A DNA stretch of 64,000 nucleotides from Verrucomicrobiales bacterium (lineage in GTDB: Bacteria > Verrucomicrobiota > Verrucomicrobiia > Limisphaerales > UBA1096). A program made the position numbers and the translations under genes. Where the stretch lies: NCBI GenBank assembly GCA_002684915.1, contig NYWG01000162.1:11324-75323 (forward strand), read 5' to 3'. The notes under the pieces are model-generated. The model did not search any database. It worked only from the letters and a program-made list of their open reading frames with translations, and was not told where the DNA came from. Positions 54,148-64,000 of this stretch are shown here, piece by piece (position 1 is the stretch's first letter; each line of letters opens with the position of its first letter).

Positions 54148-56109
54148 ATGGAAAAATTTGAAACGTTTGTCATCAATCTAGAAAGAAGAAAAGATCGCCT
54201 TGAGTCATTTTTACAACGGTTTCCCGGGACCGGCAACGCTAAAAAATTGAAAATTTTTAAAGCCATAGATGGAAATAATTTAAATTACGATTCCCCCGCG
54301 TTACATCATGTTTTGAAAGAATCCATCGAGCAAAGGCATCTTAAATTAACATTAAATTCTGGAGAAATAGGGTGCTTGTTGAGTCACGTCAGCCTCTGGA
54401 AAAAAATTGTCGACGAGAACATACCCTTTGCTCACATTTATGAGGACGATGCCCTGTTCTCTGAAAATTTCGTAACTAGAATTAAAAAGGTATTTGAAAA
54501 TACTTTTGGTATAAATCCTCCTCCTGCTATCGTGTATACCGGGGGCAGGAAACATAAAAATTATGTCACCAAAAATATTACAAAAACTATCGGTAACCTT
54601 GTCGCGCATTCCAAAAAAAATTGGAATCGACACGTCAAAGATTTAGATCGCTGGCTGCACGCTTACATCATCTCGAATCGAGGCGCTGGGCTGTTGCTAG
54701 ACATGGTGTTCAATCACTTCAACGGCAAACTTGGCATAGACCAAGCCGTCGTCATGTTTCTAAACAAAAGTAGCGAGGAAACATACAGCGCGAACCCACT
54801 TCTATGTTACTCCATACCCCAAGGAGACTCAGATATTAGAAACTGGGGCATAAAACAGAATTATTGCCCCTTTTCCTTGCAAGATAAAGTTAATTTAATA
54901 AAATTTCCGCAATTCATTCAGCACGACGACGATATTACTGACTCGCTGAACCCTGACGTCAAAGAAAAGTGTGAAGATTTATATGGATCAGGCGTTATCG
55001 ATGGCATCATCTCACATTGTCACCAAGGCTACGACAATTTATTTCTTCCACACCACCGCTTACAACATAATTTTAATGTAGATACAACGCTGTACATTAA
55101 TCAATTCAGGTATAGCAACTGCTCTCAAATAGGCGTTATTACAGATGATCAGGGTGATGATTTTATACTTTGTGGTGGGGGGTCCAAAATTCCCAATCAA
55201 TTGATTGTGAAAGACTTAGATTTCAGCAACGTATGCGGACATGACGACACACCTGGGGAAAACTGTGTTAGATTCGACACACATCGCTGGAACGATTCAC
55301 TCGGACTAATCTACAAACAAAATTATCATAGCGCTTTTATCGATGTATGGGATATTCTGAATGCACAAATAGTTGGCGAAGTCAAAGAAGAAGCCAAATT
55401 TCAAGTTATTTTTGAACACGCAATTCCACAACTAAAAAACAACATCGAAAAAATCTCAATTTATCAGGATGGCCGCGTCGGTGATGAGACTTACTTGTGG
55501 GCTGAAGTCACTTCTGAAAACTTTCAAACACACAATGTCGACAGTGAAGACGTGCTTGACTGCACACTGAAACCAGGAGGTGTTGTTCTCCTAGGTGATG
55601 AAATGACCACATTTTGCACTAATTCGAATCGCCCCAATCTACCTTTGCGTGATTTGACAAACTATCAGAAAATGAATTCTTTGTCTTTAATATCTCAGTA
55701 TAATCGACTTGTCTTAAAAATAATAAAACCCGATGTGGCTCCTCGCGCAGCTGATGGTAAAATTACCATTAATTTATACGTGACAAAAAATACGGATGCG
55801 TATTTGTCAGATTCTAAGAAATGTACCGGAACCGACGAATCGTGTACCTCAAACGATGATTGCGATACGGGAAAGACGTGCGACTATGATGAAAGCACGC
55901 TATCATCTTTTGGCAAGAGGCTGACACTTTTAGCAGCGTGCACAAGGATAGAACACGCCGCTCACCTAAATGATTTTCATTTTAAGTGCGAAGATAACAA
56001 CGCTACGTGGGATCCAAAAAGGGAACAGTGCGTAGACTCTTGCAACACTCGGTGCTGGCATAAAATAACATTAAACTTAGAAAATGTTCCAACGTCTAGT
56101 CAAAGTTAA
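54148..56109 (+). CDS. GT25 glycosyltransferase fused to a roughly 400-aa C-terminal region carrying a Cys module shared with the giant neighbour
   Basis: FVINLERRKDRLESF, SGEIGCLLSHVSLWKKIV and AHIYEDDALF form the GT25 part. C-terminal module KKCTGTDESCTSNDDCDTGKTCDYDES. Confidence 0.8.
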   Translation: MEKFETFVINLERRKDRLESFLQRFPGTGNAKKLKIFKAIDGNNLNYDSPALHHVLKESIEQRHLKLTLNSGEIGCLLSHVSLWKKIVDENIPFAHIYEDDALFSENFVTRIKKVFENTFGINPPPAIVYTGGRKHKNYVTKNITKTIGNLVAHSKKNWNRHVKDLDRWLHAYIISNRGAGLLLDMVFNHFNGKLGIDQAVVMFLNKSSEETYSANPLLCYSIPQGDSDIRNWGIKQNYCPFSLQDKVNLIKFPQFIQHDDDITDSLNPDVKEKCEDLYGSGVIDGIISHCHQGYDNLFLPHHRLQHNFNVDTTLYINQFRYSNCSQIGVITDDQGDDFILCGGGSKIPNQLIVKDLDFSNVCGHDDTPGENCVRFDTHRWNDSLGLIYKQNYHSAFIDVWDILNAQIVGEVKEEAKFQVIFEHAIPQLKNNIEKISIYQDGRVGDETYLWAEVTSENFQTHNVDSEDVLDCTLKPGGVVLLGDEMTTFCTNSNRPNLPLRDLTNYQKMNSLSLISQYNRLVLKIIKPDVAPRAADGKITINLYVTKNTDAYLSDSKKCTGTDESCTSNDDCDTGKTCDYDESTLSSFGKRLTLLAACTRIEHAAHLNDFHFKCEDNNATWDPKREQCVDSCNTRCWHKITLNLENVPTSSQS

Positions 56110-63300: not shown

Positions 63301-64000
63301 CGTCAAATCTGAATTCATCGTCCTGTCTAGGAAAAGTTCCAACATTACCAAGCTGAGACGACGAAACAACTGCACCGTTGCTGCTTCTGGTATGTCCGCC
63401 GGATGCAGAGTCTCCGTATCTTTCGTGCCACGCCTTGGCTTCCGTACCACACTTGCCCGTGCCTCGGCAGATATCATTTAGCGCAAGATTTGGGTCATCG
63501 CAACTTGGTACATCTGTTAGCGGATCCGGTTGTTCGTCTAACGCAATCAGGTTGGGGCAGGTATCGGCGTCGTATGCATTTTCAAGTGTATACGGAACGT
63601 CTATTAAGTTAAAATCCGGGACGCCCGTTTCTTTGACATCAAATATGCGCGGTTTTGTTCGCGCAAATTTAGTTCCCGGAAATACGCCGTTTGGCATCAA
63701 GCTTATTTCATTTGCTTCGCACGTCGCGTCTCCCGCGCGCCAAGCCCTTCCTGCAACGCAGTCGTCGTTCGACGTGCAGTTTGTGTCTGTGTCAGAGCAC
63801 CGAGCTAACATTGTGAAGTCATCGATCGTCGTATTAGGATGCCTTTGTCTGTTGGAATATTCATTCTCATCAGCTTGACCAGCGGCTCCTTCAGCAGTAC
63901 CCCAAGTCTTATAAAAATTGAGAGGATTAGTAGAGAGCTGGCGCTCGTCCCTATAGCGATTGGACCATCCGCCAGGTGCTATTAAATAACCGCCGTCGCC
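57335..64000 (-). CDS. giant secreted or structural-type Cys-rich protein with C-terminal glycine-rich domain; 5' end beyond the window
   Basis: The frame is open from 64000 (63 codons upstream of the ATG at 63811 contain no stop) to TAA at 57337-57335. It has repeated Cys modules (CTSNDDC, CTSDNDC, C..C(Y/F) pairs) and ends LVLAGGGSGGS..NTGGGGAGGY..VRVGRGGVS. Confidence 0.85.
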   Translation of the reverse strand, partial: GDGGYLIAPGGWSNRYRDERQLSTNPLNFYKTWGTAEGAAGQADENEYSNRQRHPNTTIDDFTMLARCSDTDTNCTSNDDCVAGRAWRAGDATCEANEISLMPNGVFPGTKFARTKPRIFDVKETGVPDFNLIDVPYTLENAYDADTCPNLIALDEQPDPLTDVPSCDDPNLALNDICRGTGKCGTEAKAWHERYGDSASGGHTRSSNGAVVSSSQLGNVGTFPRQDDEFRFDVPAYNYYRSRCSKEPNQIYTTPDRCVFTWLGETPGNVGYKIRASSFYHDMPQAADGPYNTQYFGQPDTKYMPHKAMRNASKHVKNCEWRRRYPTSGPGWSMSPDYFYANPGYSNDWFYYRTDNGVAGYHRNRCTYFGTEFNGESCSNDYDCFCDEEDENCWEDNKCVNNTDIDWDRREGVLLDGAGVVRNEFLIQYASALYGSWDGTNQMYFGSGPTHSGAFDTDYDLRTNLCHEDEFWSSERGLYYHYCESGLGASQHGMDHLCTDDLDNIGEYYGYYGTKRRLSAIEDENGHADFSTIEGEWIEFEMPPGSYVRPTTIQVGSVAGAYEGAHTAGLNNEDLAFSGSPKDWKVYGYVPSGFREGGDPMWRELVSKSDEVPSIGLNGSSYDCGDGVDTDVADANCTALYTKFALVIKKIHGDPTVFSYGYGGDGIDEVSMATVAHFRVEGHEIDGGQDAQLYKVSSLDRGTCIGGDKDGDDCSDNYACPSGSCDTSPAARPQKWETFLPNWKYHKNSSGFDFSIYDDDETDGLNEQFKSCAMACDHSVYGFYGLKTCSNAGDLCTSDNDCAGSDRCEGLATTSSTTMSDKYSAGCTNDCCYKTCLEQLEEDDDVSNKTSLNGGKGKPADCAQYCYSDEDDPSNQGIPTYSENIELPENFRNDIYSKITIDDEEGLKDYFLDFDSKQRPGELSSRCYTKCEEHADNGKERAACANTCYGNPPFHVVNNENMLFNYLENDETVTYNYEPFLGEIQKMDKDSAVCTYKKSGVDGDWVTTDFVCESDFQCSDVFQKSTRHSHACIQPSSAWTIGDQCVLHTEFDGGGSPVYPDGPEPTPVCYNGKTISEQACEKYADAMGLDFYSNQLSPTGTRPNGCVNPYGCYEVSGMFHWVGYNTTSDCGSVGENFEFAKVTPKEESTGFCMSTEDLSSFTSDDFANLDDCNFDTDCADSATCFPYHQHCVKYLTDPGLDPRIGFIGDYEMPFNVNDGDPLNNLNANKACCWKSCSSDLTGPKTDQDIKACVAACFSNPVSQDQESTETGPPVITLSDKVMGATLSVSSAKPVLSHLDDWGGSRSEADFFDGDKSAPIGCFNTCVDATKSIANKHDGIDFTQVCAKACYAGSISYPSNSYNNYRVLPENPVTSTSKHYEANKLSEFMNADARFTCRQPTCKIDYCSALGLTKQGDDCVVKTEDQCGKLPNGHWENDECYKQEDPSLEQKIYGNSRYPHQKVCKYKNPFIADDADDAGEVTSARDPSYDTTRQTTLTPPTLPVKTACESSGYHARSDVLHNHDLVSLESGVDTDRDLWGDGVEGFSKFSSFDFTSVLDTFCYEDTFHNRSDAPKKPIDADGYVSYNRGYSGFIDFEKIDKAEFSIANVGNMPWAEKRCSGGSEIDTPNAASISCSTNEPCPTGAGTCTWDTSSVSHNSMTVIDDVEMTEFTKQFNPHKDAGKYEEYCAKRCYLKNTEENPDECAAWLLDITEPDEIPQCVLFANYDDDGNAIFWDDPNTKFTQNFDDACRDDKNETQDGEGHQCEKNKDTKQIMGFSYSIFNKLNAKGNDLVTNDVRDSEQLATNNITEQVAKNICGIGAGHDALRGCTSVKDVFASASSDLDAEPQWTCDNLSSFLSDDVLDCSNFYEERADGLKYKCAADTLDLSQFPINFQKCKAQSKPINYYEGGFDNYYRDVGCAEKVTLKEIEAVSDWDANSFGSSPTNIGTVTAVSPTWNVTPNQWAVDTTDGSIILTQSPSALGSYTLYVKITQDGVLIPNSQRLSAGTTPFSDAATLISAYNASGSYNNATSQGFIKAANFPDGMYFPKTDKFKTQKSISTIVTPDAPGLETFTIGTDYKALLYKCTGVVSPGEDCPDQSFTIEEGGKDIDFLVLAGGGSGGSANSAVDITNSRNTGGGGAGGYRTSYNNHDDEDPEDADALLFKEPKLNLSPGIFEVRVGRGGVSDTISKMNGGDSYISAPKKLGRCKYFLDDDEFYEDED

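Follow-up and report, generated by a model that had tools for sequence, protein, structure and literature searches.

Genomic context of the giant gene

The window, that is, the whole 64-kb stretch of DNA analysed here, is a contig of an uncultured marine giant virus (NCLDV) which was mis-binned into a metagenome-assembled genome (MAG) deposited at NCBI as a "Verrucomicrobiales bacterium". The coding share is 88%, and the NCLDV hallmarks encoded include an mRNA capping enzyme, a cap N7-methyltransferase, a D5-type primase-helicase (DUF5906), Rpb5 and a DUF5767 protein; major capsid protein and PolB genes are absent from these 64 kb, and no tRNA genes were detected in them. An assignment to prasinoviruses, first suspected from DUF5767, was dropped once the Rpb5 RNA polymerase subunit was found. 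The IMG/VR giant-virus MAG GVMAG-S-ERX555975-30 contains a relative, and the phage DNA collection searched gave no match. The contig was probably produced with a two-step Megahit and Minimus2 pipeline merging contigs of at least 95% identity, the link of this MAG to the study that used it being suggested by the style of the accession.

The minus strand between positions 56096 and 64000 holds the 3' half of one very large viral gene, intact copies of which comprise 5,104–5,107 codons, far beyond what the window shows. As the original prediction had it, the frame is open from position 64000 to a TAA at 57337-57335, translation giving 2,221 sense codons, and then continues without a shift for 412 further sense codons to the final stop at 56098-56096. 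The part upstream of the TAA (57338–64000, minus strand), of which about 2,470 more codons lie beyond the window edge, aligns to intact 5,106-aa proteins up to residue 4693 and has an NCBI counterpart in MAD25135.1 (3,150 aa, partial). The stretch after the TAA (56099–57334, minus strand) codes for the distal two-thirds of a glycine-rich domain and a C-terminal tail, and its DNA is identical to that of the intact assembly L012. The gene is closed by a TAG, not a TAA (56096–56098, minus strand), and its last 14 nt overlap a convergent GT25 gene (54148–56109, plus strand). The chance of an open continuation of 412 codons is about (61/64)^412, or roughly 3e-9, but this figure aside, the continuation is genuine coding sequence because of its homology to intact relatives. 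It was also correctly pointed out before that there is no ATG after the TAA until position 56848. This first ATG (56846–56848, minus strand) lies 162 codons downstream and begins a 250-aa ORF deposited as MAD25133.1, with a TTG at 56851 being the first possible start.

The intact protein is Cys-rich and acidic, and its sole recognisable domain is the C-terminal Gly_rich_2; neither Peptidase_S74 nor any other known domain was detected elsewhere in the 5,106 aa, no family was found in NCBIfam, and nothing was found in the literature on prasinovirus glycine-rich proteins or on PF21722. The homolog search with the joined 1,012 aa returned nothing, the candidate list being saturated by glycine-rich words, and the matches to the non-glycine part and to the D5 helicase used as queries were almost all from the query's own cluster.

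The glycine-rich domain and the in-frame TAA

The Pfam domain Gly_rich_2 (PF21722) occupies positions 56597–57706 of the minus strand and is interrupted by the TAA (57335–57337, minus strand). When the sequences on both sides of the stop are joined, the match runs across it over profile positions 7-226 (E 6e-8, 33.5 bits), whereas the upstream piece alone covers positions 7-88 of 226 (E 5e-7, 30.3 bits) and the downstream piece alone gives E 0.13; the joined sequence and the upstream piece are both above the gathering threshold of 24.3 bits. This HMM search, proposed along with the original prediction, confirms that the stop cuts a glycine-rich domain in two. The joined match and the homologs also bear out the view that the glycine-rich blocks form one domain of a single polypeptide ending in GGSG-VVI-RY. 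In the window the domain is split by the TAA, whereas it is found whole in one chain, with a GGxGGxG-[VI][VI]I-[RK]Y end, in the proteins P0023-P0033, in the assemblies L012 and L021 and in the remote homologs P0007, P0008 and P0010. The homologs cover profile positions 4-226 within one chain, the alignment with the compact homolog P0007 extends to either side of the stop site, and a match to PHROG 2295 was obtained with E 3e-35.

The domain is followed by a Cys-rich C-terminal tail of 166 aa after ...GGSGVVIVRY (56099–56596, minus strand), which would be lost on truncation. No other part of the gene is as well conserved among relatives as this tail, where dS is 0.01-0.02, versus about 0.12 for the gene body. 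Strains show hypervariability in both the gene body and the glycine-rich domain, dN/dS of the gene is about 0.65-1.0 even when intact copies are compared, and eight of the ten codon differences from L012 are non-synonymous.

The stop is located in a lineage-specific Cys/acidic-rich insertion of about 56 residues within the glycine-rich domain (57245–57412, minus strand), which is polymorphic in the population (EDEDEDEF versus EDDEGEDEF). The local DEFYE duplication reported at this place is real, being an imperfect 22-nt direct repeat (57319-57340 and 57346-57367) with 86% identity and a spacing of 27 nt, but its supposed connection with the stop did not hold, since the repeat also occurs in intact alleles and the stop is a simple substitution of TAA for GAA.

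The substitution is a single G-to-T change on the coding strand. At position 57337 the window has T (A on the plus strand), whereas G (C on the plus strand), giving the Glu codon GAA, is found in L012, L017 and L021, which are independent Tara Oceans assemblies 99.87-99.88% identical to the window. Eight full-length proteins from the same 90% cluster (5,104-5,107 aa) have E, or GE, at the site and are uninterrupted, and five more distant relatives at 70-90% amino acid identity (L001/L005, L006/L007/P0003 and P0004) are continuous as well, the codon being GAA in L001 and L005 and another acidic codon in L006, L007 and P0004. The comparison with relatives, also suggested with the original prediction, thus gave a sense codon in every relative examined, and the TAA, which is premature relative to these intact orthologues, was seen in no contig but this one, the site being covered by at least 11 assemblies and proteins. 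Likewise, a single contig has the 250-aa ORF as a separate reading frame. Neither the TAA nor the GAA allele was matched when IMG/VR and the GTDB representatives were scanned for the exact pattern.

The contig does not differ from L012 at any of the 1,236 nt after the stop, which points to a recent change. Relative to L012, no downstream decay in the form of further stops, frameshifts or relaxed constraint was detected, dN/dS not being above that between intact copies, although this ratio is uninformative on decay, given an omega of about 0.65-1.0 for the gene as a whole, intact copies included. The lack of secondary decay suggests that the change is either very recent or an artefact.

Origin of the stop codon

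Judging from the sequence comparisons, the stop is an ordinary truncating mutation or an assembly error and not a designed split or a read-through site. Four explanations had been offered at the outset, of which recent truncation and a sequencing or strain artefact are supported, while the evidence speaks against programmed read-through and a split into two products, as every relative examined has a sense codon. Programmed read-through of the TAA, giving a short and a long isoform, would fit the 412 codons open after the stop and the 123 nt following it, which fold better than shuffled sequence (MFE z = -3.09). However, the predicted RNA structure has no compensatory pairs (0/28) and a covariation term of +2.56 over three relatives, the GAA alleles carry the same putative structure-forming sequence, and the stop is not conserved in any relative, 99.9%-identical genomes included; moreover, its context is UAA-G, and a G after UAA makes for efficient termination in eukaryotic translation. 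Read-through is therefore very unlikely. A deliberate split into two separately expressed proteins, the domain halves of which would assemble, is even less credible, having in its favour nothing beyond the two open frames and the 250-aa ORF annotated by the NCBI pipeline. Against it, the 162 codons without an ATG mean that most of the glycine-rich blocks precede the first start, all homologs have the domain as a single unit, its downstream half does not score as a domain on its own, and the arrangement is confined to one contig. The reading of TAA as a sense codon in an altered genetic code is refuted by terminator usage, since TAA normally ends more genes of the window than any other stop, namely 35 of the 59 non-overlapping ORFs of at least 120 aa; the lack of tRNA genes and the GAA read by relatives at the site also speak against reassignment. 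A perfect AG|GTAAGT donor-like motif 16 nt past the stop was considered as a sign of an intron and rejected, as it lies after the stop, the intact coding sequence of relatives can be aligned to its flanks codon by codon, and transcription and capping proteins are encoded by the virus itself.

Between the remaining two explanations, we rather favour a real nonsense allele of very recent origin, confined to a single strain or haplotype of the giant virus, and we infer that the T is present in viral DNA. One G-to-T change would have turned the Glu codon GAA into TAA in the variable acidic loop inserted in Gly_rich_2, so that the protein would be truncated at about residue 4,690 and would lack about two-thirds of the glycine-rich domain together with the conserved C-terminal tail, and the downstream 412 codons would give no separate translated product. 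Several SNPs of the contig are common to other assemblies, and none of its three indels relative to L012 conflicts with selection (two fall between genes and the third, of 9 bp, is in frame), so the other differences of the contig look biological. The contig also has private alleles at 58791 and 58963. Given the fast evolution of the gene, one nonsense change among its private substitutions is not improbable. Several points count against a real allele, namely the absence of the T from all other assemblies made from these Tara Oceans data, the probable use of a pipeline merging contigs at 95% identity or more, and the selection to be expected against a nonsense change by which a conserved gene loses its best-conserved part; G-to-T is also a recognised signature of library damage.

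It is possible, though clearly less probable, that this MAG contig owes its TAA to a consensus error of sequencing or assembly and that the virus has GAA and a normal protein of 5,10x aa. Such an error would be consistent with the confinement of the allele to one contig and with the post-stop sequence free of decay. It would also fit the private 1-bp indels at 52887 and 44675 and the AG/GA swap at 47553-4, where 6-12 other assemblies agree mutually, and the GT25 haplotype, which is a unique mix of alleles each shared elsewhere, as expected of a merged consensus. On the other hand, consensus errors in Illumina de Bruijn assemblies are rare, and the private indels avoid coding sequence, which random errors would not do in a window that is 88% coding. 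A simple chimeric consensus of the two known linker alleles was ruled out, as neither of them has T at this position.

If the nonsense allele is indeed real, it would be a natural loss-of-function variant of the protein. It is improbable that the TAA allele is real and in addition circulates as a functional variant, with either a "tip-less" fibre altering host range or adsorption or low-level read-through yielding two isoforms; were this true, the host-recognition module of an abundant, uncultured giant virus of the sea could be traced with the help of a natural knock-out. The main value of the case is a caution on split annotation: the public records MAD25135.1 and MAD25133.1 represent a single giant-virus gene with a private premature stop and not two genes, a case of recoding or bacterial sequence.

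Predicted function and comparison with known fibre systems

The intact gene is of interest in its own right as a very large, strain-hypervariable viral ORF of 5,106 aa with a phage-fibre-type glycine-rich domain, which makes its product a candidate for host recognition in a virus that is widespread in Tara Oceans samples. The intact protein probably serves as an adhesin or surface fibre. For the intact homolog P0004, the AF2 model built from a 12-sequence alignment was too poor to use (mean pLDDT 34.6, pTM 0.22). The two-sequence profile A1 gave no match, and the top PDB hits of profile A3 were 7yfw_a and 7ypx_A at E 0.002, a weak match with a compositional bias of 51.8 bits, in which profile positions 65-264 align against chain residues 82-275.

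These structures (PDB 7YFW, 7YPX) belong to the tail-fibre protein gp24 of cyanophage Pam3, which consists of a TNF-like and a glycine-rich receptor-binding domain, was related by its authors to phage S16 gp38 and to the ALK extracellular domain, and recognises the host with its glycine-rich domain as a distal tip with variable loop ends (PMC9608196). Like Pam3 gp24, the giant-virus domain has GGGGxGG motifs, here alternating with putative short beta-strands, and ends in ...GG-G--G-[IV][IV]I[IV]-[RQ]Y, and its hypervariability between strains, shared with the gene body, resembles the variable loop ends of the Pam3 tip. Unlike gp24, which is a phage fibre of 280 aa, the protein described here has 5,106 aa and belongs to a virus of eukaryotes, and its domain contains Cys-rich insertions and is followed by the 166-aa Cys-rich tail. 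As in phage and bacterial PF21722 proteins, the match passes the Pfam gathering score; those proteins often carry a C-terminal Peptidase_S74 intramolecular chaperone, which the giant-virus protein lacks, and their domain is not cut by a stop as in the window. The remote homologs P0006 and P0008 pair Gly_rich_2 with Peptidase_S74, a hallmark of tail fibres and spikes.

The Mimivirus M4 lineage, which became fibre-less after laboratory passage, is an example of a lost surface-fibre gene. As in M4, one strain here would have a disrupted copy of a large putative surface-protein gene, which is intact in relatives; unlike M4, the variant comes from an environmental MAG, is known from assembled sequence and has no known phenotype.

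Interruption of the giant gene and its relatives

On the minus strand of 56096-64000, translation runs from the window edge through 2,221 sense codons to a TAA at 57337-57335, after which 412 more sense codons follow in the same frame until the final terminator, a TAG at 56098-56096. The interrupted giant frame of the original prediction is therefore present in the sequence at the coordinates given there, and the open frame with its stop is not a product of chance. The absence of any ATG after the stop until position 56848 was also borne out, with a TTG at 56851 preceding it as the earliest potential start, and the local duplication noted around the stop takes the form of a 22-nt imperfect direct repeat with copies at 57319-57340 and 57346-57367. 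A GT25-family glycosyltransferase gene (54148-56109, plus strand) faces the giant gene in convergent orientation, the two overlapping over the last 14 nt of the latter.

The giant gene is uninterrupted in all other copies examined. Three near-identical independent assemblies, namely L012 (ENA ERZ2781646, TARA_SAMEA2622219 scaffold_87), L017 (NCBI MDTG01332785.1) and L021 (ENA ERZ908009, assembled from ERR868422), share 99.87-99.88% identity with the window over 7-20 kb, and at coding-strand position 57337, where the window has T, all of them carry G, giving GAA (Glu). L012 and L021 each have the gene annotated as one 5,106-aa product. Eight full-length proteins of 5,104-5,107 aa fall into the 90% cluster to which the 250-aa ORF downstream of the stop belongs; they read ...EDED-E-DEFYEGK or ...EDDEGEDEFYEGK at the stop site. 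The separate 250-aa ORF itself occurs on only one contig, that of the window. More distant relatives are likewise continuous through the site with acidic codons: L001 (giant-virus MAG GVMAG-S-ERX555975-30), L005 (MDSX01012565.1), L006, L007 and P0003 (4,929 aa), and P0004 (70% identity). Comparison with related sequences, suggested along with the original prediction, thus returned a sense codon in every relative examined. When 1.84 billion representative proteins were searched exhaustively, only two strong relatives turned up.

Elsewhere, the related contig L008 (TARA_SAMEA2622219 scaffold_87) has an N run, i.e. a scaffolding gap, at the equivalent of ~43327 inside the 898-aa gene of 41960-44656, which shortens the called gene there to 458 aa (P0048). 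The artefact belongs to the assembly of the relative and not to the window.

Origin of the internal stop

Recoding of TAA as a sense codon is excluded by terminator usage, as TAA is the most frequent terminator in the window and ends 35 of its 59 ORFs. Programmed read-through draws some support from the 123 nt after the stop (57215-57337, minus strand), which fold better than shuffled sequences (MFE -32.1 kcal/mol, z = -3.09), but the fold has no compensatory changes in three relatives (the covariation term is positive), the post-stop sequence is identical in the GAA alleles, the stop is absent in 99.9%-identical genomes, and its context is UAA-G, which favours termination; read-through is thus not supported. 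Nor is a deliberate split into two products, given that 162 codons after the stop contain no ATG, the downstream half-domain gives no score alone (E 0.13 against Pfam PF21722) and the arrangement is seen on a single contig. An intron at the stop is likewise not supported, the sequence on either side matching intact coding sequence codon for codon. Among the four options initially offered, truncation and artefact survive, while read-through and deliberate split do not.

It is reasonable to regard the TAA as probably a real, recent nonsense allele private to this contig. The three indels relative to L012 (two intergenic, one of 9 bp and in frame) disrupt no gene, which counts for a real allele because random error would not spare genes in 88%-coding sequence, and one nonsense change among the private substitutions is not unlikely because the giant gene tolerates many amino-acid changes. 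Several further differences of the contig (55544, 55229, 48084) recur in other assemblies, which likewise counts for a real allele. A consensus error confined to this contig is a rather less likely explanation, to which several observations nevertheless point: the T at 57337 is found in no other sequence examined, no decay is visible downstream of the stop, the GT25 haplotype of the contig is a unique mixture of shared alleles, and private oddities occur where 6-12 other assemblies agree among themselves. The latter comprise two intergenic 1-bp indels (52887 and 44675) and an adjacent AG/GA swap at 47553-47554 inside the ORF of 46967-47869, and they bear on trust in the consensus of the contig. 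Whether the allele is real or an artefact, the gene normally yields one polypeptide, and the stop does not represent a designed feature.

A giant-virus contig in a bacterial MAG

Arguably more noteworthy than the stop are the by-products of the analysis: a contig of giant-virus origin binned with bacteria, a hypervariable fibre-like gene whose product has 5,106 aa, and a viral cytochrome b6f Rieske subunit. The entire window (1-64000) belongs to a nucleocytoplasmic large DNA virus (NCLDV). It is tightly packed (88% coding) with alternating gene strands and encodes an Rpb5 RNA polymerase subunit (37790-38359, plus), an mRNA capping enzyme (18797-19738, minus) and a cap N7-methyltransferase (2483-3325, minus), so the virus possesses transcription machinery of its own, which argues against a prasinovirus/chlorovirus type despite a DUF5767 match at 28793-30079. 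A D5-type primase-helicase, a deoxynucleoside kinase and U-box and RING proteins are also encoded. By exact-sequence look-up, the window proteins are filed at NCBI under a "Verrucomicrobiales bacterium" MAG (CMO44_* locus tags, MAD25xxx.1 accessions, 78,111-bp contig); this NCLDV contig was therefore binned by mistake into a public MAG labelled as bacterial. There the giant gene lies in three pieces: MAD25135.1 (3,150 aa, partial, ending ...DDDEFYEDED), MAD25133.1 (250 aa, beginning at ATG 56848) and, on a separate contig, MAD26386.1, the N-terminus. The style of the accessions, together with the relatives from Tara Oceans, suggests that this MAG belongs to the set of Tully et al. 2018, whose pipeline combined per-sample Megahit assembly with Minimus2 contig merging at >=95% identity (PMC5769542).

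A 213-aa ORF (4116-4757, minus) matches PetC, the Rieske iron-sulfur subunit of cytochrome b6f (PF25471 TM_PetC, E 1.4e-13; PF00355 Rieske, E 4e-10). The NCBI record holds a 191-aa version labelled b6-f iron-sulfur subunit. At least 14 contigs carry the ORF, a gene of photosynthetic electron transport encoded by the virus, and a literature search found nothing specific on petC in giant viruses. Further glycosyltransferases are a second GT25-family gene (12133-12792, plus), a GT15-like gene (40610-41965) and a DXD glycosyltransferase (22182-23084), and these enzymes may be relevant to glycosylation of a surface protein. An unusual auxiliary set includes an HtrA-like trypsin plus PDZ protease (44780-46789, minus), a UbiA prenyltransferase (48904-49803, minus), a cold-shock-domain protein (53003-53446, plus), an SDR/enoyl-reductase-like protein (10584-11564, minus), a nitronate-monooxygenase-like protein (36821-37747, minus) and a patatin phospholipase (457-1437, minus).

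Evolution and glycine-rich domain of the fibre-like protein

Between lineages the gene body shows 85-94% nucleotide identity with many indels (56684-64000 versus L001, L005, L006 and L007), and the C-terminal ~200 codons and flanking genes are far less divergent (~97%), so that the body forms a hypervariable island, with the conserved C-terminal tail on one side and conserved neighbouring genes on the other. Several independent assemblies break at ~56,684-56,720. The dN/dS ratio is ~0.65-1.0 throughout the gene, also between two intact copies, and 8 of the 10 codon differences from L012 are non-synonymous. These features would fit a protein that evolves fast, is exposed at the surface, interacts with the host and has a conserved anchor at its C-terminus. 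A 119-aa segment (SDWDANSFGSS...MYFPKTD, 57851-58207, minus), present in this lineage, L012 and L021, constitutes a lineage-specific module immediately upstream of the glycine-rich domain; L001, L005, L006 and P0003 have a short stretch of unrelated sequence in its place. A small indel hotspot lies at 60686-60712 (minus), with SPTGTRPNG in the window and SPTDTTGTRPNG or SPTDPTRPNE in other strains.

That the stop cuts a glycine-rich domain in two was corroborated by profile search: with the stop masked, the match to Pfam PF21722 (Gly_rich_2) spans it, from profile position 7 to 226 (E 6e-8), compared with 7-88 of 226 for the upstream piece alone (E 5e-7). No other recognisable domains were found in the 5,106-aa protein, and AF2 modelling of P0004, an intact homolog, gave a model of poor quality (pLDDT 34.6) that does not confirm the fold. 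The 270-aa protein P0007, a compact complete Gly_rich_2, aligns to residues 4574-4661 and 4791-4941 of the intact protein, two blocks flanking the stop-equivalent residue 4694, and according to the multiple alignment the stop lies inside a ~56-residue Cys/acidic-rich insertion (57245-57412) specific to this viral lineage. The domain is one unit, and P0007, P0008 and P0010, which are remote homologs, each match the profile end to end within a single chain. In P0006 and P0008 it is accompanied by Peptidase_S74, an intramolecular chaperone typical of tail fibres and spikes. The giant gene product itself looks fibre-like, with a putative phage-type glycine-rich tip.

The top PDB match of the domain profile is the cyanophage Pam3 tail fibre (7yfw, 7ypx; E 0.002, compositionally biased). 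In Pam3 a TNF-like plus glycine-rich module makes up the distal receptor-recognising tip, in which β-strands alternate with extended glycine-rich motifs (PMC9608196). Given a Pam3-like interleaved fold, the truncated protein, cut after the first few strand and motif pairs, would be unable to form the domain.
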